Part shown: positions 3,684 through 62,410 of the stretch, piece by piece
How positions within the stretch are numbered: position 1 is the stretch's first letter
How the letters are laid out: the number at the start of each line of letters is the position of its first letter
Sequence record: OQ845958.1
Origin: Escherichia phage pEC-M719-6WT.2
Direction: 5' to 3' (one strand)
Length of the DNA stretch: 64,000 nucleotides
Made by a program: the position numbers and the translations under genes
The notes under the pieces: generated by a model
The model's database searches: none
The model's input: only the letters and a program-made list of their open reading frames with translations
Told to the model about the DNA's origin: nothing

Positions 3684-3713
3684 GTTTACATCCTCATAAA
3701 AAGGGTGTACTAT
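3684..3713 (+). promoter_or_regulatory. early promoter (GTTTACA -35, 17 nt, TACTAT -10) with conserved leader
   Basis: -35/-10 spacing of 17 nt; followed by conserved leader TATCCCATCAACTACTGAGGAG and ATG at 3742. Confidence 0.5.
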
Positions 3714-3741
3714 TATCCCATCAACTACTGAGGAGAATACA

Positions 3742-3945
3742 ATGAGAATTAAAAATATCAAGATTGATGCAGTTAATACTGGTGATGAGGTTGTTATCTA
3801 TCTTAATGATTATGCAATCTTTATGGACAGTGCCACTGATGAAGAAGTTGTTGAACTCTTACAGAAAGCTCCATTTGAACTGTGCGAAGAAGATGCTACT
3901 CATCTTTCATCAGCAATTTTCTCATTATCATATGTGGTGGAATAA
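3742..3945 (+). CDS. hypothetical protein
   Basis: 67 aa acidic ORF downstream of early promoter; SD GAGGAG. Confidence 0.45.
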   Translation: MRIKNIKIDAVNTGDEVVIYLNDYAIFMDSATDEEVVELLQKAPFELCEEDATHLSSAIFSLSYVVE

Positions 3946-4181
3946 TGAAACTTACAAATACCATGGTTTCATTGGAATATGAAACCAATAATCATATTCT
4001 TGAAATTAAGATATTTGATGACAGAAGCATATTTGCTGATTACCGCGGATATAGAATTCGCCTGGAAAAGGACGAGCTCAAAGAACCATGGCTCCTTAAA
4101 GATACCTTAAAGGGTTGTGGGTGTAAGCTGAAGACCACTCAAGCCCAAGAATTAATTTCTACCATCAACAAATACTGGTGA
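3945..4181 (+). CDS. hypothetical protein
   Basis: 78 aa; internal ATG of track ORF 3882-4181 chosen because of TAATG overlap with upstream stop. Confidence 0.4.
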   Translation: MKLTNTMVSLEYETNNHILEIKIFDDRSIFADYRGYRIRLEKDELKEPWLLKDTLKGCGCKLKTTQAQELISTINKYW

Positions 4182-4185
4182 TATT

Positions 4186-4368
4186 ATGTTAACTACTGAA
4201 CAGATTGAACAAATCCTTAAACTTGCTACTGCTATTGAACGCGATTCTTATGATATTGCAGTAGAACATTGTGAAGGCTATTCATATTCCGGAATAGAGC
4301 AGTGTAAACGAGATTTAGCGAATTCTAAAGCAGCATTGGTTGAGTATCTGAATGAGTTGAAAGAATAA
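4186..4368 (+). CDS. hypothetical protein
   Basis: 60 aa; translationally coupled. Confidence 0.4.
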   Translation: MLTTEQIEQILKLATAIERDSYDIAVEHCEGYSYSGIEQCKRDLANSKAALVEYLNELKE

Positions 4369-4625
4369 TGGCTGTTGGATTTGCAAAAGACGGAGCTGAA
4401 CAGCTAGAGATGGAAGCGGTTGTACAAGCCGCTATCACCCATGCGAGAGCACAAGTTGCAGTTGAAAGGGAGTCTGCTGAATTCTGTTTTGACTGCGACG
4501 AAAAAATTCCTGAAGCGCGGAGACAAGCGATTAGGGGTGTGATATATTGTGTTGGTTGTCAATCAATGCATGATGAAATTTTTAAACGTGAGCCACGAAA
4601 CTGTTGGCACAGGAGCATGAGATGA
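4368..4625 (+). CDS. DksA/TraR-family C4 zinc-finger protein
   Basis: 85 aa; CFDC-x17-CVGC four-Cys zinc finger at C-terminus preceded by helical region, as in TraR/DksA. Confidence 0.55.
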   Translation: MAVGFAKDGAEQLEMEAVVQAAITHARAQVAVERESAEFCFDCDEKIPEARRQAIRGVIYCVGCQSMHDEIFKREPRNCWHRSMR

Positions 4626-4716
4626 TTTACTATCTTGAACCTTGGGCTTGGTTAACAATGGCTATAGGGCCTGTTTTAATTGGTTTATTCTTTTCATGGT
4701 TAGCGAGGAAACTGTA

Positions 4717-4932
4717 ATGTTGTATGACCCAAGTGGTAATTTTGAAAATGGTGTGATTGTTCTGGAGCCTGAGCATCCAATTGGTGACGTATACCGCCCA
4801 GTTGAAGTGTGCGAATGTAATTTTGTTGCAGGTAATACTGGTGGGATTTCCATTGAGCAAGATGATGATGTTATTTACCTGGATGCAAGCCAAGTAGAAG
4901 CGCTTTATAGTATTTTAAAACATAACCGTTGA
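4717..4932 (+). CDS. hypothetical protein
   Basis: 71 aa; ATG preceded by GAGGAA; track ORF 4642 appears to begin at a non-ATG codon. Confidence 0.4.
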   Translation: MLYDPSGNFENGVIVLEPEHPIGDVYRPVEVCECNFVAGNTGGISIEQDDDVIYLDASQVEALYSILKHNR

Positions 4933-4942
4933 GGAACAGAAA

Positions 4943-6974: not shown

Positions 6975-7170
6975 CCAGGAAATCAAGGTCTTCTTATCGT
7001 ATGGAAGACCTAATAAAGGTCGGCGCTGGTATCTCGAAGCAGTCTGTCGGGAAACTGGCAGACGAATCAACAATAAGTACATATGCAAACCAACTCCCAA
7101 ACAAACTCGCAGGTTTGTTAACTGGGCTATCAATACTATAAGATTCCATAATTTTTGGAGTGCAATCTAA
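6946..7170 (+). CDS. hypothetical basic protein (possible TTG start)
   Basis: track ORF 6928-7170; TTG at 6946 lies 6 nt after a GAGGAGG SD; ends just before bidirectional terminator. Confidence 0.25.
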   Translation: MTTTIPIIDNQEIKVFLSYGRPNKGRRWYLEAVCRETGRRINNKYICKPTPKQTRRFVNWAINTIRFHNFWSAI

Positions 7171-7190: not shown

Positions 7191-7192
7191 GT

Positions 7193-7985: not shown

Positions 7986-8015
7986 GTGTACAACCAGATG
8001 GTCATGATGCATAAT
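7986..8015 (+). promoter_or_regulatory. early promoter (GTGTACA, 17 nt, CATAAT)
   Basis: followed by conserved leader GATTCCATACTGAGTTACCAAAT...GGAGAATAAAATG. Confidence 0.5.
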
Positions 8016-8056
8016 GATTCCATACTGAGTTACCAAATAAACAAACGGAGAATAAA

Positions 8057-8263
8057 ATGTTAGAATTAATCAAAGCTGCTGGTGAAAAAGGTCTGATGGT
8101 TAACACTCGTGACCCTGAACAACGTCAAGCATTTGGTGAGTTAAAAGCCAAAGGTCTGGTTAAAGCATCCCTTGGTATTGGTAATGCTTTGCGTGTGACT
8201 TTGACCCCTGCAGGTAAAGCAATGTTCTTCCCTAAACCATTACCAAAACGTCGTCGCAAGTGA
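8057..8263 (+). CDS. hypothetical basic protein
   Basis: 68 aa; C-terminal KRRRK; own early promoter. Confidence 0.45.
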   Translation: MLELIKAAGEKGLMVNTRDPEQRQAFGELKAKGLVKASLGIGNALRVTLTPAGKAMFFPKPLPKRRRK

Positions 8264-8574: not shown

Positions 8575-8604
8575 GTGTACATGGTATGGGGATAGACGTA
8601 TAAT
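8575..8604 (+). promoter_or_regulatory. early promoter (GTGTACA, 17 nt, TATAAT)
   Basis: same cassette and leader as at 7986; precedes ATG 8641. Confidence 0.5.
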
Positions 8605-8640
8605 GTTCCCATACTGAGTTACCAAATACTGGAGAATAAA

Positions 8641-9165
8641 ATGGAAGCTAAATCAATCTTTAATCTGATTAATTACAATAATGGTAATTTTAAATCAGAA
8701 GCACAAAGCAAGTTCTTTAATGATGTTGCTTGTGCGGGTGAGATTACAGTATCAGGTGGTCAGACTTATAAAAATGCCTGGAACTGGATTGTGACTGTTG
8801 ATTCAGTTGGTATTGTTGATGTGTATAAAAACACCAACAAAAACCGCTCTTTGTTCTGGTCAAGAGAGACTAATGCAGAATATCAGGCGGCAAGAGCGAA
8901 GAAAAATATGCCTACTGAATCTGATGTACAAAACATCAAATCAGATATCCAATATTATGATGGTCTGATTGCTGAACAACAAGCGGTGCTTGATAAGTTC
9001 AATGAAATCAAAGCATGTAAAGAGATTCCTGAATTCATGAGGGAATCAGTTAATGAACAATACAATCTCACTTCAGAGCGTATTGAAACCTATACCAAAC
9101 AAAGAGCAGAGCGCCAGGTACTCCTTCAGAAGTTTGAAGAGCGTTTAAAGACGGTTCTCGCATAA
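8641..9165 (+). CDS. hypothetical protein with C-terminal coiled coil
   Basis: 174 aa; heptad-rich C-terminus. Confidence 0.5.
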   Translation: MEAKSIFNLINYNNGNFKSEAQSKFFNDVACAGEITVSGGQTYKNAWNWIVTVDSVGIVDVYKNTNKNRSLFWSRETNAEYQAARAKKNMPTESDVQNIKSDIQYYDGLIAEQQAVLDKFNEIKACKEIPEFMRESVNEQYNLTSERIETYTKQRAERQVLLQKFEERLKTVLA

Positions 9166-11175: not shown

Positions 11176-11205
11176 GTTTACTTCCAAGGATGGAGGGGGT
11201 ATAAT
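11176..11205 (+). promoter_or_regulatory. sigma70-like promoter (GTTTAC, 18 nt, TATAAT)
   Basis: upstream of ATG 11233 with SD GAGGAG. Confidence 0.4.
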
Positions 11206-11232
11206 GAATTCCTACTTTATGAGGAGAACACT

Positions 11233-12222
11233 ATGACACGTAATGAATATATCCAGGCCTTTAACACCACTATCGATGCAAAAGTAAAACCATTAATAGG
11301 TGAATCGGCTATCCTTTTAATTATCAATTACTGGTTAAATCAGATTGACTCGACGATTGTTGCATCCGGTCGCTTCAAGAAAGACATTGCGACTATTGCG
11401 AGTCGTGCCGGTAAAGATGATATCAAGAAAACTTTTAAAGGTTCCCGAGTCCTGGCATACCTAGTTAATAAAGACCTTCTTAATAAGTTTGGTGTTGAAT
11501 CCAGACGTGGTAAAGGTACAATTGGATATCATTGGTTTGGTGATGTTGAAAAATACTACCTTGATAAACAAGGCTATACTGTTTCTGAATTCGCAAATTG
11601 TTGGGCTCGTGAATTCAGAGATAACAAAATGTCTATCATAAAATCAGCGACAAAATTGATGGGCAGCGATTATCGCACTATCTCCCATTTGGCTGAGCAC
11701 ATGATAAATGTTAAAGAGTCTGGTGAAAACCAGGTAATTATTACAGTTAAGTATGAATTCTTTACGCCGGTGGCTACTCCAGAAAATGTCAAAAAGTATC
11801 TTGATGCCGCGAGCACGCTTACTTCACAGCTGCAGTGTGCCCTTAATTATATGCGCACTGTTGAAAAAATTAAAGTAGACCCTATCACCAGTACTCATGG
11901 TTGGAAAGGTTGGAAAATTGTGGTGACATTACGCGAAGTTAAATGTGCAAAGCAACCAACTGTTGCAGAAATTTATAAAAAGAAAAGTGAGGAAATTATG
12001 AATGCTCCGCAAGAAACCACCCTTGAAGACCTGATTGATAATCTGAATAATGAGCCAGTGGAACAAAAAGCGCCTGAAATTGTTGCTCTGGAAATGGCGT
12101 ATAATAAAGCTCTTGCTGTTAATAAAAAGGCAACTGAAGACTATACCAAAGCCAAGCGACTTTGGGAAGAATCAACTAATCGTCTGGATAAACTGGAACA
12201 GGCTCTGGAGCTGCTGAAATGA
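11233..12222 (+). CDS. hypothetical protein with C-terminal coiled coil
   Basis: 329 aa. Confidence 0.5.
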   Translation: MTRNEYIQAFNTTIDAKVKPLIGESAILLIINYWLNQIDSTIVASGRFKKDIATIASRAGKDDIKKTFKGSRVLAYLVNKDLLNKFGVESRRGKGTIGYHWFGDVEKYYLDKQGYTVSEFANCWAREFRDNKMSIIKSATKLMGSDYRTISHLAEHMINVKESGENQVIITVKYEFFTPVATPENVKKYLDAASTLTSQLQCALNYMRTVEKIKVDPITSTHGWKGWKIVVTLREVKCAKQPTVAEIYKKKSEEIMNAPQETTLEDLIDNLNNEPVEQKAPEIVALEMAYNKALAVNKKATEDYTKAKRLWEESTNRLDKLEQALELLK

Positions 12223-14314: not shown

Positions 14315-14431
14315 AACCATGGTACACCGCTCGATGGGAAACCGTCGAGCCAGAGGAACCTGTTTACAACGATTCCGAAATAGATTATAATGAACCTTCA
14401 AACAATGATTTAATCGATATGGAGTTTGGAT

Positions 14432-14605
14432 ATGAGTACCAAAATTGAAATTGGCCGTCATAAAGGCCGCCTGATTGAAAAATCACTTTATGAACTGTCG
14501 GATTCCCGTAAGTTACCCGATGAAGAATCTGCTTTAATTTTTGCCGCGGCGGATTATATCCATTGGCTTGAAGCTCAACTTCGCTTTGCTGATAAGGCCT
14601 TTTAA
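14432..14605 (+). CDS. small hypothetical protein (57 aa)
   Basis: hand-translated; stop overlaps next ATG (TAATG). Confidence 0.25.
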   Translation: MSTKIEIGRHKGRLIEKSLYELSDSRKLPDEESALIFAAADYIHWLEAQLRFADKAF

Positions 14606-18767: not shown

Positions 18768-18770
18768 AAA

Positions 18771-18804
18771 AGGGGTGTACAAGCCCCTTTGAACGGTGTA
18801 TCAT
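18771..18804 (+). promoter_or_regulatory. terminator-like hairpin with early promoter -35 in its loop
   Basis: AGGGG-TGTACAAG-CCCCT hairpin then TTT; GTGTACA (-35), 17 nt, TATCAT (-10), then conserved leader TATCCCATCAACTACTGA. Confidence 0.5.
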
Positions 18805-18835
18805 TATCCCATCAACTACTGATGAGGAAAACAAA

Positions 18836-19012
18836 ATGGTTATTGAAGATAAAGAAATTAAAGTCAACCAGTATTATTCAATCAACGGCAAAGCTGTTTT
18901 AGTAACTGAAATATCTAGCCTGGATGTGTGGTATACCATAATTGACCTTGGTATTAAAATGATTTGTGACCGTGGAGTGTTTTGTTCGATAGCTAAGGAA
19001 ATTAAATTATGA
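18836..19012 (+). CDS. small hypothetical protein (58 aa)
   Basis: hand-translated; follows conserved leader; ATGA overlap with next gene. Confidence 0.3.
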   Translation: MVIEDKEIKVNQYYSINGKAVLVTEISSLDVWYTIIDLGIKMICDRGVFCSIAKEIKL

Positions 19013-19896: not shown

Positions 19897-19904
19897 AAAT
19901 CAAC

Positions 19905-37067: not shown

Positions 37068-37307
37068 ATGAATATCACATTAATGAAACCTACCCCTAGT
37101 TCTTTTTGGAATAAATCTTTTGGTAAGCATAATATGTTTATCCAACGCACCGTAAGCAGCTGGGAACTAGTTCTTTCAGTCGGCCACAATGATTATGAAC
37201 AAGAATACGTAGAGTTCTTCGAATTTCCTGTGAAACCTACCAAGCGTCAGATTCGTCAGACAAAACGCAAATTCCGCAAAATTTATCTGGAAGATGCATT
37301 AAAATAG
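37068..37307 (+). CDS. hypothetical basic protein
   Basis: 79 aa. Confidence 0.4.
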   Translation: MNITLMKPTPSSFWNKSFGKHNMFIQRTVSSWELVLSVGHNDYEQEYVEFFEFPVKPTKRQIRQTKRKFRKIYLEDALK

Positions 37308-37336
37308 TGTACAACAAAGGGATAATGCTGTATATT
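37307..37336 (+). promoter_or_regulatory. early promoter (GTGTACA, 17 nt, TATATT)
   Basis: followed by conserved leader ATCCCTATCAACTACTGAGGAG. Confidence 0.5.
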
Positions 37337-37364
37337 ATCCCTATCAACTACTGAGGAGATTGAA

Positions 37365-37658
37365 ATGAAAAAGTTATTAATCGCGGCAATTCTTACCGTA
37401 GCATCATGTGGTACAGCTCCAGTTACTGCTGGACTTGATAAAGACCTTTGTGAGTGGTCTATGACTGCTGACCAGACTGATGTTGAACATCAGATTTATG
37501 CTGATATTATGAACATAACTAAACGTGACCGCCCTGATATGGTTAAAGAAGTATCTGACAAATTGACTTCTGGTGACGTTATGCAGTATAACTATGTTCT
37601 GTATTGCGATGCTTCATTTGACAATAGCAAAATTGTTCAATGGGTTACAGGTGAATAA
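37365..37658 (+). CDS. sp: Spackle (periplasmic superinfection exclusion protein)
   Basis: 97 aa (same as T4 Sp); signal peptide; DKDLCEWSMTADQT and QYNYVLYCD match remembered T4 Sp; located between 41 and 61. Confidence 0.75.
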   Translation: MKKLLIAAILTVASCGTAPVTAGLDKDLCEWSMTADQTDVEHQIYADIMNITKRDRPDMVKEVSDKLTSGDVMQYNYVLYCDASFDNSKIVQWVTGE

Positions 37659-42727: not shown

Positions 42728-42972
42728 ACTGGTTAACAAATATTCCCACATCGGCGCTGGATATCGACCGTAAACATGCTCATAAGGAAATCGAGCAACA
42801 AAAAATTAATCGTTTACAAAGGCTTAAGACTGAATCCGAGACAATTAAAGTCGAAACCCCGATAAAATCGAAAAGTTCTTACTCATCATATCAATCTCCA
42901 TCATATCAATCTCCGATTGGTATGGCCGTAGACATTGCAGTCTTTGGCGTTCCACTTGGAGTGTTTAAGTAG
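42724..42972 (+). CDS. hypothetical protein with SSYSSYQSPSYQSP segment and C-terminal hydrophobic helix
   Basis: 82 aa from ATG 42724. Confidence 0.4.
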   Translation: MNWLTNIPTSALDIDRKHAHKEIEQQKINRLQRLKTESETIKVETPIKSKSSYSSYQSPSYQSPIGMAVDIAVFGVPLGVFK

Positions 42973-43028
42973 TTTACTTACTCCCCTCCTAATGACATAA
43001 TGGTCTTTCTTACAACAGAGAGACCATT

Positions 43029-43589
43029 ATGAACATCATCAAATCTGATACCGAACCCAACCAGTTAAAATTTAGTGAAATGGAGATAGCTTCATTATTT
43101 GAATGCCGTACATCAAAGGTTGATAAGACCTTGCATTCAAATGTCAACTCAATCATCAAGTCAAGGTTGTCTATACCCGATACAGTCTTGTGGCGCGGGG
43201 TAACCCAGCAAGAGATTGATTTATTAGATGAAGCAAAAGAATCAATGCAACCTTTTGAATTTGGACGGGTAACCTCCTTTACAGAAGACTATGGTATTGC
43301 CAGGGATTTTGCTGCAATGGAATATGTGACAAGGACTATCGTCAGATTGAATCAGACCAAAGCTTTTTGTTACCATGATGCGATGCGCAAAATCGCACTT
43401 GATGTTCCACTTGAATTCTTCAATACAGCTTCTGGTTCCGCCCAGGCAGCTACATTAAGGCGTGAAGAATACATGGACATGATTGATTCTGAGCTTGAAT
43501 GGTTTGTTCCAGTTGACCAGAAATTCGTGGTAGTTGATGCTGGATTTATTGATGATTATTATGTTCTTGACTGTGTACAAGAGCAATAA
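43029..43589 (+). CDS. ADP-ribosyltransferase (ModA/ModB family)
   Basis: 186 aa; R-S-E triad elements: LWRG, TSFT, ELEW; located between soc and dda as T4 modA/modB. Confidence 0.65.
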   Translation: MNIIKSDTEPNQLKFSEMEIASLFECRTSKVDKTLHSNVNSIIKSRLSIPDTVLWRGVTQQEIDLLDEAKESMQPFEFGRVTSFTEDYGIARDFAAMEYVTRTIVRLNQTKAFCYHDAMRKIALDVPLEFFNTASGSAQAATLRREEYMDMIDSELEWFVPVDQKFVVVDAGFIDDYYVLDCVQEQ

Positions 43590-43602
43590 GACACGTTAAG
43601 AT
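43573..43602 (+). promoter_or_regulatory. early promoter inside 3-prime end of upstream gene (GTGTACA, 17 nt, TAAGAT)
   Basis: followed by conserved leader GTTCCTATCAACTACTGATGAGG; supports ATG 43634 as true start. Confidence 0.45.
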
Positions 43603-43633
43603 GTTCCTATCAACTACTGATGAGGATAATAAA

Positions 43634-44248
43634 ATGCTGTACACTGATGACGTTTTGAATGGAATTATTAACACTGCCGCTTCTAGTGAGTCTTTTCGTA
43701 ACCAATGTCAAGCGGAGATTGATGCTCTTTATACAGATAATGAGCAATCAGTACTCTGGCAGTGTATGGAAAATAAACCTGACCTGATTCAAGAAGACTT
43801 GTCCAGGATTATCCGCAACAATCTGAATACTGCACCGCCGGCAGCATTGTTCCGTGGTATATCAAAGAAAACCATGGAATACCTGGAAGATTTAAGATAT
43901 GTTGGTGCAACAATTGAATTCAATCGTGTAATGAGTTTTTCCAGGGACTGGCAGGTTGCAAGAAATTTCGCATCATACAGTTTCTATGGAACAAGGAACA
44001 TTTTCTGTATAAACAATGCACCATATGCGTATAACTATCAGGAAGCAATCTTCAAAATGATTTGTGGTGCTCCTCCTGAAGAGTTCAATGGTGCATATCC
44101 AGAAGCAACCAGGAAGTCAAACTTGCACCTGGTTAATGATGAAGATGAGTTTATGTTTCCCGCTGGGACTACGCTCCGCGTAGACTTGATTGAAACACAC
44201 CCATTGAATAACCTGTATACTGTTTGGCATTTAACTGTTTTGAACTAA
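43634..44248 (+). CDS. ADP-ribosyltransferase (ModA/ModB family)
   Basis: 204 aa; LFRG, MSFS, EDEF motifs; paralogous to upstream gene. Confidence 0.65.
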   Translation: MLYTDDVLNGIINTAASSESFRNQCQAEIDALYTDNEQSVLWQCMENKPDLIQEDLSRIIRNNLNTAPPAALFRGISKKTMEYLEDLRYVGATIEFNRVMSFSRDWQVARNFASYSFYGTRNIFCINNAPYAYNYQEAIFKMICGAPPEEFNGAYPEATRKSNLHLVNDEDEFMFPAGTTLRVDLIETHPLNNLYTVWHLTVLN

Positions 44249-44307: not shown

Positions 44308-44336
44308 GTGTACATAAAAGATGAATAGTATATAAT
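44308..44336 (+). promoter_or_regulatory. early promoter (GTGTACA, 16 nt, TATAAT)
   Basis: AAAAGTAGTGTACA upstream box shared with promoters at 47666, 58201 and 62381. Confidence 0.45.
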
Positions 44337-44381
44337 GATTCCGTACTGAGTTATTCACGTCCGTAAGATGAGAAAAATATC

Positions 44382-45125
44382 ATGAATATGTCAAAAGAAG
44401 AGTTTGAATTAAAAGTTTACAAACGTCGCGAGCATACCAAAACGTCTGCAAAACGTCGTAACAAGGATTTCAATCTGTCTAGTAAGTATATTGCCAATCT
44501 TTTGAAACAAGAATTCTGTGCGTATTCTGGTGAACGTTTTGATGAAAATTCAACTCAAGATAAAGTTTCCTTTGAACGCTTTAACAATGATATAGGTTAT
44601 ATTGAAGGCAATGTTATCCCTGTCAAAACTAAGTACAACGGTTTACGTGCTGATTTATCTCTTGATGAACTTAAACGTGCACAGACTCGTTTGGCGGTGC
44701 GTATTAATGGCGGTTCTAAGATGCCCAATAGTTTTAAAGTAACTCCCGCTGACTATTATAAAATTCGCAAAATTGTTAAAAATATTAAAGATACCGAACG
44801 TGGAATCAAGAAGCGTCAAAAACATTTAAAAGAGCTTTATAAAAGTGGCGCTAAAGATACCACCCCTTCTGTGATTGCAGTCAAGGCTCGTATCCATGGA
44901 CAAATGGCTTCCATCGGAACTAGTCAACGTGGGCTGAAAATGGTTATGGGTGGTCCTGACTGGCGTCTGAAAATGAAATCATCTGACGCTGAAACGCGTT
45001 ACGATATGTATGATAAAATTATTCAAGGTCTGGAGCGTTTAGATAAGTTGTCATTCATTGACCGCCTTAAACTGAAACGTGGTCTGCCTTTGAACGCGTC
45101 AATTTTTAAACTGATTAGAGGTTAA
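44382..45125 (+). CDS. Srd-position protein (assignment by synteny and size only)
   Basis: 247 aa; lies between mod genes and dda like T4 srd (about 250 aa); basic N-terminus; contains an HNH-reminiscent stretch. Confidence 0.35.
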   Translation: MNMSKEEFELKVYKRREHTKTSAKRRNKDFNLSSKYIANLLKQEFCAYSGERFDENSTQDKVSFERFNNDIGYIEGNVIPVKTKYNGLRADLSLDELKRAQTRLAVRINGGSKMPNSFKVTPADYYKIRKIVKNIKDTERGIKKRQKHLKELYKSGAKDTTPSVIAVKARIHGQMASIGTSQRGLKMVMGGPDWRLKMKSSDAETRYDMYDKIIQGLERLDKLSFIDRLKLKRGLPLNASIFKLIRG

Positions 45126-47665: not shown

Positions 47666-47695
47666 GTGTACAAGGCCAATGGAAAGAGACATAAT
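47666..47695 (+). promoter_or_regulatory. early promoter (GTGTACA, 17 nt, CATAAT)
   Basis: followed by conserved leader CATCTCATCAACTACTGATGAGG. Confidence 0.5.
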
Positions 47696-47726
47696 CATCT
47701 CATCAACTACTGATGAGGATAACAAA

Positions 47727-47984
47727 ATGATTACTTCTTTTGAAATTGGCCAACAATATGAAATGTCTGCTCTTCAAGCTGCTGAAGCAGGTCTGACTGA
47801 AGCGTTTGAATGTGCATTTACAAATATTCGTGGTAAAATCTTTACTGTCAATAAAATTGCGGTATATGATAAAGAAACAGACATGAACAAAGGCATCTAC
47901 TTGAACGTGTCAAACGCAAAAGGCCGTCGTGAAATTATGGTTGTACAACCTAACCAACTGGCGATGTTCAATAAGGTTACATAA
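47727..47984 (+). CDS. hypothetical protein
   Basis: 85 aa from ATG 47727. Confidence 0.4.
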   Translation: MITSFEIGQQYEMSALQAAEAGLTEAFECAFTNIRGKIFTVNKIAVYDKETDMNKGIYLNVSNAKGRREIMVVQPNQLAMFNKVT

Positions 47985-48743: not shown

Positions 48744-48779
48744 GTGTACAAACTCTTGGGGTCAGAGTATAATGACCCC
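48744..48779 (+). promoter_or_regulatory. early promoter with -10 inside palindrome (44-bp exact copy of 59953-59996)
   Basis: GTGTACA, 17 nt, TATAAT; GGGGTCA/TGACCCC arms flank the -10. Confidence 0.5.
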
Positions 48780-48815
48780 ACTGGAGAATAAACTTATTAA
48801 CCAAGAGAGAAAATT

Positions 48816-49370
48816 ATGAAAGTTGAAGCTGGTGATATTGTACGTGTTTCTAAAGAATCTCGTTCTAAAGCTGCTGGTCGTTTTGTTGAGGTTGCGGGTC
48901 TTCGCACTAATTTAGTAGGTGGAATTAAAGAAGTTAAAGTGCGTATCATTCCTAAAAATGGTCAGACTGAAACTCAATTGGCTTATGTGCATCCTAAATT
49001 CCTGGAATCAACCGAATTTACTGGATATATCGCTCCTGTGTCTGAGGAAGTTGAATCCCATGATGGATATGTGTGCGAAAGCAATGATATCCGTGGTGTA
49101 ATTGCTCAAGACGTTGAAACCATTGACCAGTCTCATGTTGGGGTTGATTTTAAATGGAAATTGGGCAAAGGTGTCTTTTTTGTTTCACCTAAACCGTTTG
49201 AATACAATTGCATGTACGGTCCGACTTATGAAACCACTAGCATGTCTGGTTACATCACAGACCAGTGGGTTGAAGAAGGTGTCAAACTGTATAATATCGT
49301 ATTCCTTGGAACCTTTAAGGTTGTTCCTGAGAGCTTTATCGTTGAGTATGCCGATATTCATTTTGCCTAA
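48816..49370 (+). CDS. hypothetical protein, paralog of 47984-48736 C-terminal domain
   Basis: 184 aa; ...SGYITDQWVEEGVKLYNIVFLGTFKVVPESFIVE. Confidence 0.5.
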   Translation: MKVEAGDIVRVSKESRSKAAGRFVEVAGLRTNLVGGIKEVKVRIIPKNGQTETQLAYVHPKFLESTEFTGYIAPVSEEVESHDGYVCESNDIRGVIAQDVETIDQSHVGVDFKWKLGKGVFFVSPKPFEYNCMYGPTYETTSMSGYITDQWVEEGVKLYNIVFLGTFKVVPESFIVEYADIHFA

Positions 49371-52956: not shown

Positions 52957-52982
52957 AAAAGGACCTTCGGGTCCTTTTTTAT
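52957..52982 (+). terminator. rho-independent terminator
   Basis: GGACC-TTCG-GGTCC hairpin plus T6. Confidence 0.6.
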
Positions 52983-52983
52983 T

Positions 52984-53013
52984 ATGTACAAGCCACAAAA
53001 ATTGCGTTAAGAT
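52984..53013 (+). promoter_or_regulatory. early promoter (ATGTACA, 17 nt, TAAGAT)
   Basis: upstream of ATG 53031. Confidence 0.4.
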
Positions 53014-53030
53014 ATCCTTGAGGTGAACAT

Positions 53031-53315
53031 ATGATTATGTCTGACGGAAGTTTAGTTAATCTGCAGAATGTTGCACGTTGTATTATGGAAGCAGGTCTGA
53101 GGAAGGTACAGGAGCTCCCAGATAGCGACAGGAAGCGAAGTTACTTGTTGGCTGTAAGAGCATCAGCCATGAGCATTAAGGCTGGCCAGAAGGTTCCTGA
53201 GGAGCGAATTGAAGCACTCCTTGCATTGATATACCATGGCCAAGAACATAAAGCTACCATGCGTAGTATGAGAAAAATATTGCAGGAGATTGGAAATGAC
53301 AAACTTCAAAGTTAA
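53031..53315 (+). CDS. hypothetical protein
   Basis: 94 aa. Confidence 0.45.
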   Translation: MIMSDGSLVNLQNVARCIMEAGLRKVQELPDSDRKRSYLLAVRASAMSIKAGQKVPEERIEALLALIYHGQEHKATMRSMRKILQEIGNDKLQS

Positions 53316-57273: not shown

Positions 57274-57867
57274 ATGATTCAGAAGAGTAAAACATGGGAG
57301 CATCTGAAAAAGATGCCCTCCTTTCTTTATACAAAAGAAGACTTAACCCCCGAATCCCTGCAAAAGATTGTAGACACTGCCAGGTATTCATTGCGTAAAG
57401 ACCCTGGTCAGGACCGTGAGCAAGTCATGCAAAGATGTATGGTGGCTACAATGGCTGAACAAGCTATTGCTAAATGGACCTCCGGTTTTTTATGTGGTGG
57501 CGATGAAGATTACGATAATCCTTATTCCTTTGCATTTGATGTAGTTTCGAAGGAAGGGGTAAGAATCGAAGTCAAGACCCATCAGTCTGGTTCCAAATGG
57601 ATATCCGTGCACACTGGCAGCCATGGCGATTACCCACACGGTTACGGAGTTAATCTTGGCCCTTTTATGCAGCACAAGCTTGCTGACCTTATGATTATGT
57701 TTAATGTAAAAGAGACTATCAAAGGTTATAGATTTAAACCAAAATTCCTTGCTGGGCCGGGTGCTTTCGTTCCTGAGTCTGGTCTTGTGCAGAAGTCACA
57801 AGGGGATGGCTGGTACCTCCGTTCTTGTTCAGAAGAAAAATTTCCCTATCACCGGTTTACAAGCTGA
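57274..57867 (+). CDS. hypothetical protein with possible PD-(D/E)xK nuclease motif
   Basis: 197 aa from ATG 57274; FAFDVVSKEGVRIEVK fits D...E-x-K pattern. Confidence 0.35.
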   Translation: MIQKSKTWEHLKKMPSFLYTKEDLTPESLQKIVDTARYSLRKDPGQDREQVMQRCMVATMAEQAIAKWTSGFLCGGDEDYDNPYSFAFDVVSKEGVRIEVKTHQSGSKWISVHTGSHGDYPHGYGVNLGPFMQHKLADLMIMFNVKETIKGYRFKPKFLAGPGAFVPESGLVQKSQGDGWYLRSCSEEKFPYHRFTS

Positions 57868-57914
57868 ACCAACCATGTAATAATGTCCTCACACCAACAA
57901 ATGAGGACATTATC

Positions 57915-58190
57915 ATGGAACACGTTACTACTAATAACATCAAACAAATTCTTATTCAAGCACTCAAAAACAACAACATCAATTTTCCAACCCATGAAAT
58001 TTTTGATGTAGTATTCAACGAAGTCCAGGGACAAGTTGCCTATTATGACGTTATCATTTATCTTTCAGAATTTGAAGTCTACCACCTGACTGAAATCGCT
58101 TTCTATCTCTATCGTGGAACAGCAGATTTTACTGGGGTCGTGAATGCAGTTGGTGCATATAAAGAAGTTAAAGAACAAATGCACAATTAA
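57915..58190 (+). CDS. hypothetical protein
   Basis: 91 aa from ATG 57915 (SD GAGGA). Confidence 0.4.
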   Translation: MEHVTTNNIKQILIQALKNNNINFPTHEIFDVVFNEVQGQVAYYDVIIYLSEFEVYHLTEIAFYLYRGTADFTGVVNAVGAYKEVKEQMHN

Positions 58191-58200: not shown

Positions 58201-58230
58201 GTGTACATCAGTATGGAGTCTATGTATAAT
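58201..58230 (+). promoter_or_regulatory. early promoter (GTGTACA, 17 nt, TATAAT) flanked by inverted repeat
   Basis: CAGTATGGA (58209-58217) and TCCATACTG (58234-58242) flank the -10. Confidence 0.5.
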
Positions 58231-58266
58231 GATTCCATACTGAGTTACCAAATACTGGAGAATAAA

Positions 58267-58422
58267 ATGAAACCTGCTCAATATGCAATGACTTTATACC
58301 TTGAAGTTAATGGCGATATTACTGAATTTTTTAAATTAATGCAACAGCGTGGAAAAAGTTTTGCAGTTACTGAGCGTCAATTTTACGCATGTCGCAAAAA
58401 TACATACAATCGTTATGCATGA
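58267..58422 (+). CDS. small hypothetical protein (51 aa)
   Basis: internal ATG of track ORF 58144-58422 following conserved leader. Confidence 0.35.
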   Translation: MKPAQYAMTLYLEVNGDITEFFKLMQQRGKSFAVTERQFYACRKNTYNRYA

Positions 58423-58789: not shown

Positions 58790-58818
58790 GTGTACATCTC
58801 CAGTGGTTGTAGTATAAT
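58790..58818 (+). promoter_or_regulatory. early promoter (GTGTACA, 16 nt, TATAAT)
   Basis: followed by leader GAACCTATCAACTACTGGAG. Confidence 0.45.
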
Positions 58819-58844
58819 GAACCTATCAACTACTGGAGATGATT

Positions 58845-58961
58845 ATGAAAAAGTTACTTAAAGCCATTTGGAACATGTTTGTACTGTTTGTTGTCCTGAG
58901 CATTTTCCCAATTGTTTTTATGATTGACCATGTGCGTGTTTACTTTAACTATTTCTTTTGA
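58845..58961 (+). CDS. small membrane peptide (38 aa)
   Basis: hand-translated; one TM helix. Confidence 0.25.
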   Translation: MKKLLKAIWNMFVLFVVLSIFPIVFMIDHVRVYFNYFF

Positions 58962-59609: not shown

Positions 59610-59954
59610 ATGTCTAAAGTATTTTTTGGTAATGCTAAAGTTATGTTCTTTAAACAGATTAGCCTTCAGGAGGCGTCGGAGGCATTCAATCAAAGTATGA
59701 TTCCTGACGTACATCCAAAAGTTATGACGAGTGCTGATTTCGTTTTCGTCCAAGACCCGGAAACAGGCTTTTATCGGTTCATTAAATTTCGTATGAGTAT
59801 GGAGCCAGGTTATCATAGTGCTTACTACGTGAGTTATGAAAATGTTATCAAAGAATTGCGTAATACCTATAAGCGCGCTTTGACCCCGCTGAATAAGGTG
59901 TATAATGCTTCCTTTTATACGAGCGGATTTATTTTAGAACAGCTTCAAAAATAG
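59610..59954 (+). CDS. hypothetical protein
   Basis: 114 aa. Confidence 0.45.
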   Translation: MSKVFFGNAKVMFFKQISLQEASEAFNQSMIPDVHPKVMTSADFVFVQDPETGFYRFIKFRMSMEPGYHSAYYVSYENVIKELRNTYKRALTPLNKVYNASFYTSGFILEQLQK

Positions 59955-59989
59955 TGTACAAACTCTTGGGGTCAGAGTATAATGACCCC
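59954..59989 (+). promoter_or_regulatory. early promoter with -10 inside palindrome (44-bp exact copy of 48743-48786)
   Basis: GTGTACA, 17 nt, TATAAT flanked by GGGGTCA/TGACCCC. Confidence 0.5.
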
Positions 59990-60027
59990 ACTGGAGCAAA
60001 AAACTTTAACTTACTGAGGAAATTAAT

Positions 60028-60477
60028 ATGACTACTTACATGACCCGTCGTGACGTACTGAATGCTGGTGCTACCACTGTTGCTTATATCCATAATGGTA
60101 ATTATGTTGCCGGTCGCCCAACTAAAGAAGCTATCACTCAACCAGGTTTTTATTTCGTGGTTAAAGGTGAAGGTGAATCGCGTATTGTTGCCGCACGTTT
60201 TTATGTTGGTAACCAACGTTCACAACAAGGGTTTGACACTGTATTAAGTCACATCCGCAAACAGCGTTCTCAACTGTCTCGCACAATGGCGAACAATGGG
60301 GTTATCTATGAAGTCCTGTTTGTCCCAGTTTCTAAAATGAAACCTCTGACAACTGGTTATGGTAAAGGTCAAATTGCAATGGCGTTCACTCGCTCGCATA
60401 GTTCTGATTGCCAGACCCTTTCAGAAATGAATCGCATGCTTGCTGATAACTTTAAATTCATTCTGCAGAGCTATTAA
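60028..60477 (+). CDS. hypothetical protein
   Basis: 149 aa. Confidence 0.5.
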
Positions 60478-60566
60478 TATGAGTAATTTCCATAATGAAC
60501 ACGTGATGCAATGGCATCGTCATAATCTGAAATTAACTGGCGTCTTTGGACGCCCTTGAGGAAAAT

Positions 60567-60719
60567 ATGAAATTTGTTCATGGCGTAGCTTTTTTCTGTT
60601 GGTCATTTTTATTTGTTGGAACATTAATAACTGGAGAAACTTCAGTATTTCTGCAGTCAACAGCTCAAGGTGTATTAGCGACTTTAACACTATTTAAATT
60701 ATTGGATAAAAATGATTAA
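60567..60719 (+). CDS. small membrane protein (50 aa)
   Basis: hand-translated; hydrophobic. Confidence 0.25.
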   Translation: MKFVHGVAFFCWSFLFVGTLITGETSVFLQSTAQGVLATLTLFKLLDKND

Positions 60720-60852
60720 GAAAATCTTGGGCTACTCGTTAGCCCTTGCTACTTTGTTGGTGGCGCTGTATTACGGAGTTGTGTTTGCATTAGTGCAGGT
60801 TGTGCTTTTTATTTCTGATGCTATAATGGCAGTACATTCGTTAATTTGGTAA
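60712..60852 (+). CDS. small membrane protein (46 aa)
   Basis: hand-translated; hydrophobic. Confidence 0.25.
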   Translation: MIKKILGYSLALATLLVALYYGVVFALVQVVLFISDAIMAVHSLIW

Positions 60853-60860
60853 GGTGATAT

Positions 60861-62240
60861 ATGTCTGACGTTTTAAGTATGATGTCCAAACAGTTCAGTG
60901 ATTCCATGGGGACCCTTAACCCACGCAGTCTAAAAGACATTATTGATGTGGAAGCATTGTCATATGCTATCTACACTGTGGAAGGTCGTGCCATCCCAAA
61001 CATGATTGATGGTTTTAAACCAGTTCACAGATTTGTTATGGCGAGAGCATTAGACCTGGCACGTGGTGATAAGAATAAATTCCATAAGGTTGCATCCATT
61101 GCAGGTGGCGTAGCTGATTATGGTTATCACCATGGTGAAGCATCAGCTGAAGAAGCAACTTCTGGGTTGGTCGCAACATATAAAAATGAATATCCCATGT
61201 TTGATGGGCAAGGTAACTTTGGTTCCAGAATGGTGCCAGAAGCATCATCGGCTCGTTATGTATTCGCAAGGGTTTCAAAGAACTTTTACAACTTGTTTAA
61301 GGATACAGAATATGCTCCGGTCCATCCTGATGAAGAACATAAGCCTCCTGCTTTTTATCTTCCTGTTATTCCTACTGTATTACTTAACGCCACTTCTGGG
61401 ATTGCTGTTGGCTTTGCTACTGATATCCTTCCTCATTCGTTCCAGGACGTCAAGGAAGCTGTTAAAGCTATCGTGGAAGGTCGTGAGCCGGTTGCTCCGA
61501 AAGTAAAATATCCAGAATTCCGTGGTAAAGTTGTTGAGCTGGAAGAGCCTGGTAAGTATGAGCTTCACGGCACATACAAAATGACCTCAAGGACTCAAAT
61601 GGAAATTACTGAAATCCCGGTCCAATGGAACCTGGAAAAATATACAAGTAAAATCCTGGACCCACTGGAAGAGAAAGGTTTTATCACCTGGAAAGATAAC
61701 TGCGGCGAGCATGGTTTTGGGTTTAAGATTAAATTCCGCAAAGAATACAAGTTGGATGGCACTGAAGAAGAGAATCATGAGAAAATCATGAAAGACTTTG
61801 GTCTGATTGAGAAACTCTCCCAGAACTTAACTGTGCTTAATCACAAAGGCAAATTAGCTGAATACACCAACACGCTTGACCTGATTCGCGATTTCGTTGA
61901 TGTCCGTAAGACTTATGTTCAAGTGCGAATTGACAGTAAGATTAAAGAAACTGAAGCGGCATTTAAACTGGCCCGGGCAAAAGTCTTCTTTATTAAAGAA
62001 GTGATTGATGGTAAGGTTGTTATCCAGGGGAAACCTCGTAAGAAGTTGATTGAGGAGCTCCAGGCGAGTGAAATATATGGCGATTATGCAGAGAAGTTAG
62101 TGGCGATGAACATCTACCATATGACCTCTGATGAAGCTAAGAAGCTTGCGGACGAAGCTAAGGCTAAGAAAGCTGAGCATGAGTACTGGAAGACAACTGA
62201 CGTTAAAACTGAGTACCTTAATGATTTGGAGGCTCTATGA
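60861..62240 (+). CDS. 52: DNA topoisomerase II medium subunit gp52 (GyrA-like cleavage subunit)
   Basis: 459 aa (T4 gp52 442 aa); N-terminal region aligns with remembered T4 gp52 / GyrA breakage-reunion domain. Confidence 0.88.
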   Translation: MSDVLSMMSKQFSDSMGTLNPRSLKDIIDVEALSYAIYTVEGRAIPNMIDGFKPVHRFVMARALDLARGDKNKFHKVASIAGGVADYGYHHGEASAEEATSGLVATYKNEYPMFDGQGNFGSRMVPEASSARYVFARVSKNFYNLFKDTEYAPVHPDEEHKPPAFYLPVIPTVLLNATSGIAVGFATDILPHSFQDVKEAVKAIVEGREPVAPKVKYPEFRGKVVELEEPGKYELHGTYKMTSRTQMEITEIPVQWNLEKYTSKILDPLEEKGFITWKDNCGEHGFGFKIKFRKEYKLDGTEEENHEKIMKDFGLIEKLSQNLTVLNHKGKLAEYTNTLDLIRDFVDVRKTYVQVRIDSKIKETEAAFKLARAKVFFIKEVIDGKVVIQGKPRKKLIEELQASEIYGDYAEKLVAMNIYHMTSDEAKKLADEAKAKKAEHEYWKTTDVKTEYLNDLEAL

Positions 62241-62335
62241 GTTTTGGAGTTGAGTTTGCATTGCTTTGTATTTTCGCGGCAATCGCAGGTGTGATTGTTG
62301 GTATGTTTATTGGTAATAAGATAGATAAAGACTAG
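62237..62335 (+). CDS. small membrane peptide (32 aa)
   Basis: hand-translated; ATGA overlap with gene 52 stop. Confidence 0.2.
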   Translation: MSFGVEFALLCIFAAIAGVIVGMFIGNKIDKD

Positions 62336-62357
62336 GACCCTTCGGGGTCCTTTTTTA
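62335..62357 (+). terminator. rho-independent terminator
   Basis: GGACCC-TTCG-GGGTCC hairpin plus T6. Confidence 0.65.
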
Positions 62358-62380
62358 TTTTAAAATATTTTAAAAAAGTA

Positions 62381-62410
62381 GTGTACATGACCCTTGACCT
62401 GATGCATAAT
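62381..62410 (+). promoter_or_regulatory. early promoter (GTGTACA, 17 nt, CATAAT)
   Basis: AAAAGTAGTGTACA box and GATTCCATACTGAGTTAC leader. Confidence 0.5.

Follow-up and report, generated by a model that had tools for sequence, protein, structure and literature searches.

The early-gene region of a T4-like coliphage of the genus Gaprivervirus carries 19 repeated promoter–leader cassettes, all on the same (+) strand, which most probably represent the immediate-early promoters of this phage, used by the host sigma-70 RNA polymerase and organized as 'plug-in' expression cassettes of the PeSL type. The window, that is, the whole stretch of 64,000 nucleotides analysed here, shows ~97% identity to MN01 and ECML-359 and 96–98% identity to Gaprivervirus genomes, and its + strand is the direction of early transcription (55-47-46-45-44-62-regA-43-imm-uvsX-41-61-modA/B-dda-dexA-39-rIIA-rIIB-motA). 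Each cassette consists of an A-rich upstream tract, G(T/C)(G/T)TAC(A/T), a spacer of 16–17 nt, a TATAAT-like −10 element, a C-rich discriminator, a conserved 5′UTR and a Shine–Dalgarno (SD) sequence with an ATG that opens an ORF in all 19 cases. Functionally, this would amount to an UP-like tract, a −35 of the T4 type and the remaining parts of a promoter and leader, placed directly before a single, usually small gene and in most cases accompanied by a stem-loop of variable position; promoter activity, start sites and timing are predicted from the sequence. The preliminary description of this DNA listed 13 such sites and put their number at 14 or more. All 13 are present, although 32228 should read 32229, the position of the G of GTTTACA, and six more share the architecture (11176, 14362, 42972, 48744, 57855 and 59954). 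The spacing of 16–17 nt given there is correct as a range, but measured from TGTACA to the −10 hexamer it is 17 nt at 17 sites and 16 nt at just two.

An unbiased repeat finder returned the cassettes as the top families, and an untrained loose regular expression matched 20 times on the + strand and once on the − strand, compared to 1.78 ± 1.35 matches in dinucleotide shuffles. A position weight matrix (PWM) yielded 20 matches on the + strand and none on the − strand of the window (0.85 in shuffles), and 15–26 and 0–1 matches, respectively, in the relatives. The A/T content upstream of the cassettes is 75% versus 60% (p = 4e-7), with the A-tract located where it has been reported for UP elements of T4-like phages (PMC1524935). 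Among orthologues from eight relatives, the −35 and −10 elements are the most conserved positions, diverging by 1.0% and 0.4%, compared to 4.1% for the spacer, 4.8% for the upstream region, 3.1% for the leader and 2.4% for the coding sequence; this purifying selection on the two elements bears out the original reading of the repeats as early-type sigma-70 promoter–leader cassettes. The enrichment is limited to this promoter family, as a scan with the generic sigma-70 consensus gave no enrichment over shuffles, and the cassette −35 TGTACA matches TTGACA at just four of six positions. A half copy that lacks the −35 is found at 19897, and a weaker candidate, below the PWM threshold, at 52957..53035 (terminator 52957–52978, ATGTACA at 52984, TAAGAT at 53008 and ATG at 53031; + strand). 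The cassettes resemble T4 early promoters (UP/−35 GTTTAC/−10 'uber'; PMC2988021, PMC1524935) in the A-rich tract around −40 to −44, the G-TTAC-type −35, shifted one base relative to TTGACA, the 17-nt spacer, TATAAT, the C residues at −3 to −1 and the location 5′ to early genes and novel small ORFs. Unlike in T4, the third position of the heptamer is G rather than T at 13 of the 19 sites (GTGTACA), there is no regular TGn, and the transcribed leaders form discrete conserved families.

Multi-copy intergenic repeats of ~60–100 nt, some with adjoining insertions, could also be taken for a non-autonomous, MITE-like mobile element or for target sites of homing endonucleases rather than regulatory DNA. 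Such an origin is highly improbable, given that all copies share a single orientation and a fixed distance to the start codon, that conservation peaks at the −35 and −10, and that the spacers differ between copies. Furthermore, neither terminal inverted repeats nor target-site duplications were seen, and the window, the eight relatives and JS10 contain neither intragenic copies nor copies in both orientations flanked by duplications.

Whereas two conserved leaders had been proposed initially, the leaders fall into three classes, A (8 cassettes), B (5) and C (2), plus four singletons. Class A includes the cassettes at 3641..3744 (upstream terminator 3641–3668, dG −16.7; −35 GTTTACA at 3684, −10 TACTAT at 3708, ATG at 3742), 18769..18838 (ATG at 18836), 32229..32301 before imm (ATG at 32299), 36482..36548 (ATG at 36546), 37307..37367 before sp (spackle; ATG at 37365), 43573..43636 before a second ADP-ribosyltransferase gene (ATG at 43634), 47666..47729 (ATG at 47727) and 58790..58847, which has a 16-nt spacer and precedes a 38-aa ORF (ATG at 58845). 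Class B is represented by 7986..8059 (ATG at 8057), 8575..8643 (ATG at 8641), 58201..58269 (ATG at 58267), 62334..62462, upstream of a small ORF and motA (terminator 62334–62351, −35 at 62381, ATG at 62460), and a variant with a 16-nt spacer at 44308..44384 before srd (ATG at 44382). The two class C cassettes precede motB (48744..48818, with GGAGAATAAAC in the leader; ATG at 48816) and ndd (59954..60030; ATG at 60028). Leaders of their own are found at 11176..11235 (GAATTCCTACTTTATGAGGAG; ATG at 11233), 14362..14434 (ATG at 14432) and 57855..57917 (ATG at 57915), and the remaining cassette, 42972..43031, precedes a modA-like ADP-ribosyltransferase gene. In the Dhakavirus JS10, which belongs to another genus, the orthologue of the 11176 cassette has the same spacer and a class A leader, and that of the 14362 cassette is near-identical in promoter and leader, with a difference at the last spacer base.

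RegB/S1 cleavage sites offer the most concrete functional reading of the leader 3′ end, one missing from the preliminary description. The exact T4 consensus for RegB/S1 cleavage, GGAGAAUAAAA or GGAGRAYARAA (PMC1702504, PMC3014915), is present in five copies in the window, compared to 0.10 expected, and all five are cassette SDs, namely, those of the 7986 (GGAGAATAAAA, 8047–8057), 8575 (8631–8641), 36482 (36536–36546), 58201 (58257–58267) and 62381 (62450–62460) cassettes. In these five cassettes, the leader ends in the exact T4 RegB/S1 target, GGAGAAUAAAA(UG). In the relatives, 36 of 39 RegB consensus sites are no more than 110 nt away from a cassette promoter. More generally, GGAG is found in the SD region of 10 of the 19 cassette genes versus 14 of 118 others (p = 1.5e-4); the GGAG sites at 3684, 11176, 37307 and 59954 break the rules of PMC1702504, for instance, by a C at position 9 or 5. 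The 3′ end of regB itself lies at 2..106 on the + strand (Pfam PF10715 REGB_T4, 38.9 bits versus a cut-off of 27), and regB is annotated in EAWsc9 at the place syntenic to the start of the window; the endoribonuclease would act in trans on the cassette leaders. As in T4 (Durand et al., 2006, PMC1702504; Uzan and Miller, 2010, PMC3014915), the exact 11-nt motif is part of the translation initiation region of genes that come first after an early promoter, in a phage that encodes regB, but the full consensus is present in only 5 of the 19 cassettes and the sites are predicted.

RegB leaves the conserved 5′ half of the leader (AUCAACUACUG; AUACUGAGUUACCAAAUACUG) unexplained, because the enzyme was found to require nothing specific 5′ of GGAG (PMC1702504). 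This part could be a specific cis-acting RNA element, such as a translational enhancer or a site bound by S1 or by an RNA-binding protein of the phage, which would define two or three post-transcriptional immediate-early regulons, rather than a by-product of promoters or recombination. Consistent with such a role, the classes are discrete, the 5′UTR starting with AUCAAC in class A and with AUACUGAG in class B, and their cores are multi-copy and strand-specific (ATCAACTACTG, eight copies on the + strand and none on the − strand; CATACTGAGTTA, four and none), both long leader patterns having an expectation of 0.00. Likewise, TACTG stands 5′ of the SD in 10 of the 19 cassette genes versus 3 of 118 other genes, class B is maintained at about 11–16 places per genome among the Gaprivervirus records listed, and flanking sequences stimulate RegB/S1 cleavage (PMC1702504). 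Nevertheless, we consider a dedicated RNA element unlikely. A search of Rfam produced no family matching the leaders, and no fold is kept across the class A variants, the hairpin of 47666 being absent in 3684 and 37307. Between close orthologues, the leader is not better conserved than the coding sequence, and the genes that follow each class show no apparent functional logic. Moreover, the orthologous nrdC.8 and srd genes of the two genera have different leaders (promoter and 5′ leader of class A in JS10, class B in this phage), so that the class does not follow the gene.

The stem-loops fit PeSL-type early promoter cassettes. A stem of at least 7 bp is present in 13 of the 19 cassettes (dG −8.5 to −21.4) versus 9.7% of random windows (p = 1e-9) and lacking in six, and all positions listed for PeSLs by Arbiol et al. 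are occupied. The −35 had been described as often residing in the loop of the preceding terminator. This arrangement exists at 18769–18790 (TGTACA in the loop; dG −12.4) and 36482–36506 (CTTACA; dG −15.2), but at only these 2 of the 19 sites; a proper + strand U-run accompanies the second hairpin alone, which is terminator-like, whereas the first is flagged as such on the − strand only. Elsewhere, the hairpin lies within the spacer (32236–32253), in the leader (47699–47717) or astride the −10 (8584–8614, 37318–37342, 48757–48780 and, with 10 bp, 58208–58243); the ndd cassette has one at 59967–59990. The former stem-loop of the 7986 cassette is the terminator at 7169–7186; a 791-nt insert, absent from five relatives, now lies between the two. 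The JS10 imm promoter has, by eye, an apparent spacer hairpin of different sequence. In the hairpin straddling the −10, 96.9% of cells are paired, with five double-sided changes, a result equalled by 1 of 500 shuffles.

Stem-loops upstream of or around the −35 that carry a U-run may terminate incoming transcription. By contrast, where a hairpin straddles the −10, its 5′ arm precedes the predicted start site, so that the structure would be confined to read-through RNA from upstream or to single-stranded DNA. In the modA-like cassette, an 11-bp hairpin (42996–43031, dG −20.8) pairs the −10 and discriminator with the start-codon region, with the same architecture but a different sequence in JS10, and in the 57855 cassette the −10 and SD regions pair in a 12-bp hairpin (57880–57913). 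Such read-through-only hairpins would bury the SD and ATG, so that translation is predicted to proceed only from transcripts of the cassette's own promoter. The T4 genes e, soc and 49 have hairpins that sequester the ribosome-binding site and contain an internal late or middle promoter. The hairpins at 42972 and 57855 are similar in having the 5′ arm upstream of the predicted start and the 3′ arm over the SD and ATG, but differ in that the promoter of this predicted arrangement is of the early type. For the mobE hairpin, a reference is listed in PMC3014915.

The cassettes do recombine. The cassettes before two different genes, motB (48744) and ndd (59954), match without a difference across 43 nt, spacer included, and in different phages the gene-41 locus shares a spacer with the 3684 locus and with the 62381 locus. 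The array 3′ of gene 41 contains zero, one or two extra ORFs, each with its own cassette; the 36482 cassette marks the site where relatives have one or two extra cassette–ORF units, with junctions either within the loop that holds the −35 or in the interval from the −10 to the leader. Cassette sequence flanks the MN01 insert, with a 41-nt overlap, and breakpoints coincide with cassettes at 37301 (a replacement), 7986 and 58269, the 58201 cassette being cut exactly at the ATG by a deletion in TH40 and TH54. Finally, promoter modules have been swapped with the junction inside the leader in TH54 and at srd, where the class A promoter and 5′ leader of JS10 are joined to the same 3′ leader. The idea that leaders are substrates for the gene shuffling behind hyperplastic regions is upheld by these cassette-bounded events and by identical cassettes before unrelated ORFs, but not by the distribution of breakpoints. 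Among 39 distinct indels or replacements against eight relatives, cassette junctions were hit in ~4–5 of 19 cases versus 43 of the 115 other gene junctions, which amounts to no enrichment, and 6 of 78 indel boundaries fall in cassette intervals, which make up 4% of the window (p = 0.09); most single-gene indels use SD-to-ATG microhomologies of 7–17 nt at junctions without a cassette.

This distribution suits ordinary early promoters with optimal ribosome-binding leaders, kept alike by the same selection and having neither mobility nor a special role in recombination, as do the mostly unrelated paralogue spacers (mean identity 0.33) between shared −35, −10 and leader sequences, the presence of the class A core CCTATCAAC in JS10 and the account of the leader 3′ end provided by the RegB consensus. 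We regard this as a tenable view but lean against it, as it does not explain the identical or near-identical spacers at non-orthologous loci before unrelated ORFs, the cassette flanks of the MN01 insert or the swaps within leaders. Nor does it explain class B, which among the matches listed is otherwise found only as isolated or weak matches (four places in Morganella phage MP1 and one each in a few Escherichia/Shigella records of unchecked genus) and is missing from JS10; such confinement mainly to Gaprivervirus implies the spread of one variant within a lineage. In the favoured model of PeSL-type cassettes, the copies act as homology patches because they have 25–75 nt of near-identical sequence in common, and via these patches promoter modules and cassette–ORF units are exchanged from time to time between loci and between phages.

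PeSLs have been described in RB49/phi1 (Arbiol et al., 2010, PMC2839356) and in T4/PST and nt-1/KVP40 (Comeau et al., 2014, PMC4122927), where they are defined as an AT-rich tract, −35/−10 and a variably placed stem-loop, which can overlap the −35, followed by an SD and ATG. The resemblance noted in the preliminary description extends point by point: a composite intergenic motif that joins sigma-70-type elements to the SD and start codon (ATG) of a small ORF, a stem-loop (often GGGG...CCCC) that takes one of several positions and can overlap the −35 or −10, clustering in plastic regions but not in core replication blocks, crossovers in the loop or from the −10 to the ATG, and arrays with one cassette per ORF. 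The differences from these accounts are the genus, the −35 GTGTACA in place of TTGACA or TTTACW, the discrete leader families, and an indel association that, set here against a gene-junction null, shows no enrichment; the link between cassette SDs and the RegB/S1 consensus is likewise absent from the available PeSL descriptions. Given that PeSL cassettes are already known from other T4-like phages, the finding is real but mostly ordinary. The co-location of RegB-consensus sites with the cassettes is new here, and with the target in the SD, RegB of this phage would cut it soon after infection, turning off the first cistrons.

By megablast, the window belongs to the genus Gaprivervirus (Straboviridae, Tevenvirinae), with 96-98% identity to MN01, ECML-359, EAWsc9, VR20 and SP18; it is a mosaic that matches none of the records exactly. 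In annotated relatives, early transcription runs along the + strand, and the genes follow the order regB (the C-terminus of RegB is coded at 2-106; PF10715, 38.9 bits), vs, tk, nrdC region, nrdD/G, 55, 47, 46, 45, 44, 62, regA, 43, imm, uvsX, 41, 61, modA/B, srd, dda, dexA, motB, 39, rIIA, rIIB, ndd, 52 and motA.

All 13 promoter-leader sites quoted in the preliminary description are present in the window, and inspection of all G(T/C)(G/T)TAC occurrences on the two strands yielded six more (11176, 14362, 42972, 48744, 57855 and 59954, named, as all cassettes here, by the -35 position). The resulting 19 cassettes all lie on the + strand and share one layout, consisting of a -35 heptamer G(T/C)(G/T)TAC(A/T), which is GTGTACA at 13 of the 19 sites, a TATAAT-like hexamer located 17 nt (16 nt at two sites) beyond TGTACA, a C-rich discriminator, a leader and, at the 3' end of every cassette, a Shine-Dalgarno sequence (SD) and an ATG 26-49 nt past the -10. 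The ORFs opened by these 19 ATGs encode 38-329 aa. Judged qualitatively by position, the cassettes cluster at 3.7-18.8, 32.2-48.7 and 57.9-62.4 kb; none of them falls within 18.8-32.2 kb (genes 55 to 43) or 48.8-57.8 kb (genes 39, rIIA and rIIB). The only candidate in the latter interval, at 52984, is weak: this would-be 20th cassette (52957-53033; terminator, ATGTACA, 17 nt, TAAGAT, SD, ATG) scores under the threshold of the position weight matrix (PWM) derived from the sites.

The cassettes greatly exceed chance expectation and are confined to one strand. A loose, untrained regular expression matched 20 times on the + strand and once on the - strand, against 1.78 +/- 1.35 in dinucleotide shuffles; the PWM gave 20, 0 and 0.85 matches, respectively, and 15-26 matches on the + strand versus 0-1 on the - strand in eight aligned relatives. 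An unbiased repeat finder returned the cassettes as its largest families. A generic sigma-70 TTGACA/TATAAT scan of the window showed no excess over shuffles and thus cannot discriminate the cassettes; only this specific family stands out.

Several lines of evidence point to promoter function. The 25 nt upstream of the cassettes are 75% A+T, compared to 60% window-wide (p=4e-7), with an A-tract that spans -8 to -4 relative to the heptamer, where T4-like UP elements sit (PMC1524935). T4-type early promoters combine a GTTTAC-like -35 at -36 to -31, a 17-nt spacer, TATAAT and an A-rich stretch at -40 to -44, and are active at once after infection without phage proteins (PMC1524935); the cassettes have these sequence features in common with them. 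Among orthologous cassettes of the eight relatives, divergence is 1.0% in the -35 heptamer and 0.4% in the -10 hexamer, compared to 4.1% in the spacer (4-10 times more), 4.8% in the upstream 40 nt, 3.1% in the leader and 2.4% in the first coding bases. Taken together, these patterns suggest that the cassettes are functional early promoters, with both activity and timing inferred from sequence. We also considered MotA-dependent middle promoters, in which the box (a/t)(a/t)(a/t)TGCTT(t/c)a centred at -30 replaces the -35, and rejected this reading, given that TGCTT at -30 occurs in none of the 19 cassettes. Two separate MotA-box-type middle promoters (TGCTT, 13 nt, TATAAT) are found at 40248-40271 and 41109-41155. 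The TGCTT of the second, at 41132, lies directly 3' of a terminator (41109-41128), an arrangement that resembles the 'PmSL' reported for phage nt-1 (PMC4122927).

Perfect stems of at least 7 bp with at least three G-C pairs are present in 13 of the 19 cassettes and in 9.7% of equal-size random windows (p=1e-9); the remaining six cassettes lack a stem of this length. The folding energies of the cassette hairpins range from -8.5 to -21.4 kcal/mol, and their positions vary. There are upstream terminators with U-runs (3641-3668 and 62334-62351), hairpins around the -35 (18769-18790 and 36482-36506), a hairpin within the spacer (32236-32253), hairpins straddling the -10 (8584-8614, 37318-37342, 48757-48780, 59967-59990 and 58208-58243), hairpins pairing the -10/discriminator with the SD/ATG (42996-43031 and 57880-57913) and one in the leader (47699-47717). 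The -35, previously said to lie often inside a terminator loop, does so at only two sites, 18769-18790 and 36482-36506, and of these two hairpins only the latter has a convincing + strand U-run. The stem that straddles the -10 in cassettes with the class C leader changes from GGGGTCA/TGACCCC to GGGAGCA/TGCTCCC in TH44 and to GGGACCA/TGGTCC in JS10, a phage of another genus, Dhakavirus; 96.9% of the cells in the alignment are paired, with five double-sided changes, a result equalled in 1 of 500 shuffles, although the sample is small. Likewise, the hairpin between the -10/discriminator and the SD/ATG of the modA-like gene is kept in JS10 with other sequence (ATGACCTC...GAGGTCAT against CATAATGGTCT...AGACCATTATG). 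Thus, the cassette hairpins appear to be under selection. A half cassette at 19897-19939 carries the class C hairpin straddling the -10, GGGGTCA-TGGTATAA-TGACCCC, and a TGn extended -10, without the GTGTACA -35; a complete version, with GTTTACA and the stem variant GGGACCA/TGGTCC, is found in JS10 at 39059, upstream of gene 55.3.

Promoter-early stem-loops (PeSLs), as defined in the two papers that describe them (PMC2839356, PMC4122927), combine an AT-rich tract with a -35/-10 of sigma-70 type and a stem-loop, often GGGG...CCCC, followed by an SD and an ATG. The stem-loop can sit upstream, overlap the -35 or the -10, lie in the spacer or lie downstream of the -10, and PeSLs reside mostly in hyperplastic regions before small ORFs. 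They have been described in RB49/phi1, T4/PST and nt-1/KVP40 (PMC2839356, PMC4122927), and PeSL-like sequences have been reported near gene 43 of JS98 (PMC2839356). Reporter assays and inverse PCR have revealed strong promoter and terminator/attenuator activities as well as mini-circles formed between neighbours (PMC2839356). The window cassettes display all sequence-level features of this definition, and all five stem-loop positions are represented among them. Their placement, in qualitative terms, also fits, being in hyperplastic regions and 5' of small or unknown ORFs. The preliminary description was therefore right to liken the repeats to PeSLs, and, from their sequence features, PeSL-type early promoter cassettes are very probably the main explanation of the repeats as a whole. 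The literature searched contained nothing specific on PeSLs or promoters in Gaprivervirus.

The leaders had been sorted into two conserved types; instead, there are three families and four cassettes with leaders of their own. Class A, C(C/T)(C/T)ATCAACTACTG(A/G/ATGA)GG, is found at 3684, 18775, 32229, 36490, 37307, 43573, 47666 and 58790, and its core, ATCAACTACTG, occurs eight times on the + strand and never on the - strand. Its start, (AGA)CCTATCAAC, located at the predicted start site, is common to Gaprivervirus and JS10. Class B, GATTCC(A/G)TACTGAGTTA, comprises 7986, 8575, 44308, 58201 and 62381, and its spacer is often complementary to the first leader bases. It is lacking in JS10; among the BLAST matches listed, it occupies about 11-16 places per Gaprivervirus genome, four places in Morganella phage MP1 and single places in a few other Escherichia/Shigella records of unchecked genus, with weak partial matches elsewhere. 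Class C, GACCCCACTGGAG, is represented by 48744 and 59954, which are identical over 43 nt, spacer included. No Rfam family was detected in the window at gathering thresholds. A conserved RNA fold for class A was rejected as well: the CUCAUCA/UGAUGAG hairpin of 47666 is only partial in 18775 and 43573 and missing from 3684, 36490, 37307 and 58790, so that no fold is common to all copies. Inspection of the 5' leader by eye for signs of NAD-capping or 16S complementarity (a translational enhancer) gave no clear match. The 5' half of the leader is accounted for neither by a RegB/S1 site nor by Rfam or a common class A fold.

The 3' end is more telling. In T4, RegB together with ribosomal protein S1 cleaves early mRNAs inside GGAG, between G and A; the optimal target is the 11-mer GGAGAAUAAAA, in general form GGAGRAYARAA, which most often serves as an early gene's SD (PMC1702504, PMC3014915), and there is no specific requirement 5' of GGAG (PMC1702504). 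Such targets are single-stranded and belong to intergenic translation initiation regions of early transcripts. The phage of the window has its own regB. The exact sequence GGAGAATAAAA occurs five times in the window, against 0.10 expected, and all five copies (8047, 8631, 36536, 58257 and 62450) are cassette SDs, with the last base being the A of the ATG. The full consensus is present in only these 5 of the 19 cassettes; GGAG within 22 nt before the ATG is found in 10 of 19 cassette genes versus 14 of 118 other genes (p=1.5e-4). In the minimum free energy folds of 8575 and 36482 (start of the motif only), the two whose folded stretch extends to the motif, it is unpaired. Of 39 consensus sites that the early strand carries across the relatives, 36 are located at most 110 nt downstream of a cassette promoter, but most of these sites are orthologues and hence not independent. 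Most plausibly, the leader's 3' end is in many cases a putative RegB-sensitive ribosome-binding site, which would produce a burst of expression followed by shut-off.

To assess the proposed role of the cassettes in gene shuffling, we aligned the window to the eight relatives (EAWsc9, TH40, TH44, TH41, TH55, TH22, TH54 and part of MN01). Clear cassette-bounded events are found downstream of gene 41 (36475-36508), where the window has one cassette. At this locus, MN01 has an extra class B cassette and a 100-aa ORF, with cassette sequence flanking the insert (41-nt overlap), and TH44 and TH41 have two extra units of cassette and ORF. TH54 differs in its ORF, and its promoter, of Dhakavirus type, is fused to the same leader. 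Junctions at this locus are located either in the -35 loop or in the stretch that separates the -10 from the leader, places to which Arbiol et al. mapped mini-circle crossovers (PMC2839356). At the equivalent of 36474-36508, the otherwise Gaprivervirus genome of TH54 carries promoters of the form GTTTACT tctcc...TATTAT AGACCTATCAAC, as at JS10 18717, which indicates intergeneric exchange whose junction falls inside the leader. Similarly, nrdC.8 and srd have a class A promoter and 5' leader in JS10 and class B in the window, the srd junction lying within the leader. Further boundaries coincide with cassettes at 37301, 7986 and the ATG of 58201 (58269). Between a terminator (7169-7186) and the promoter at 7986 lies a 791-nt segment (7195-7985) with a lone minus-strand ORF (7193-7939, 248 aa), annotated in relatives as 'tail-NK domain' or 'tail needle knob'. 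Five relatives lack this segment: TH44, TH55, TH22, MN01 and, as part of a longer missing stretch (6975-7985), TH41. It looks like an insertion into an earlier stem-loop and promoter unit. Finally, the same cassette and spacer precede unrelated ORFs at 48744 and 59954, at the 3684 locus of TH44 and the gene-41 locus of TH41, and at the 62381 locus of TH44 and the gene-41 locus of MN01.

Enrichment of breakpoints at cassettes is nonetheless not supported in this sample. Against a gene-junction null, 39 distinct events relative to the eight relatives involve about 4-5 of 19 cassette junctions versus 43 of 115 other junctions, and 6 of 78 boundaries fall in cassette intervals, which make up 4% of the window (p=0.09). 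Most single-gene indels occur at cassette-free junctions, through SD...ATG microhomologies of 7-17 nt, such as GGAGAATAAAATG with GGAAAATAAAATG. Where relatives have lost a single gene, the deletion is bounded by direct repeats of 7-17 nt, consisting of the SD, spacer and ATG of successive genes (for example, 58257/58411, 58960/59408 and 1460/1624), implying that ordinary translation-initiation regions act as microhomology for gene loss. The shuffling proposal is therefore only partly supported: the cassettes serve as homology patches that are not favoured in this sample over ordinary gene boundaries. Mobility in the manner of a MITE or a homing site was rejected, since all copies keep one orientation and a constant distance to the ATG and lack terminal inverted repeats and target-site duplications.

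Other variable segments were observed in the same alignments. A region of about 2.4 kb with nrdD and nrdG (15549-17958) has no counterpart at that place in TH44 and MN01, where about 125-135 nt separate the flanks. In five relatives, the intergenic region between regA and gene 43 (29420-29430) is longer by about 200 bases immediately 5' of gene 43, adjoining a hairpin (29430-29449); the operator region of gene 43 is known to be plastic, and the extra bases may be related to it. Between genes 46 and 45.2, MN01 (16361-17077; window 26082-26129) carries a 773-nt insert with a minus-strand ORF that is missing from the window and may be a homing-endonuclease-type insertion.

These results make modest additions, namely, leader families that are discrete, perfect RegB/S1 sites that coincide exclusively with cassettes, covariation in support of the hairpins and a negative breakpoint result; neither the tie between RegB/S1 sites and cassette SDs nor the breakpoint null was found in the parts consulted of the PeSL papers (PMC2839356, PMC4122927). 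A more ambitious view, which we consider rather unlikely, is that the cassette is a transferable immediate-early timing module in which the leader families are specific RNA elements that set different post-transcriptional fates. Such a module would give any ORF placed behind it a strong early promoter, its hairpin would insulate the gene from upstream read-through or tie translation to its own promoter, and an SD cleavable by RegB/S1 would end expression.

None of these results overturns the current understanding of T4-like phages, and the breakpoint null tempers the idea that PeSLs drive hyperplasticity. With the cassettes, the PeSL concept reaches a further genus of therapeutic-type coliphages, Gaprivervirus, whose early transcription units can be annotated with the promoter/leader model obtained here. 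With all perfect RegB/S1 sites in 64 kb being cassette SDs, transcriptional and post-transcriptional early control would be tied together in one portable unit.
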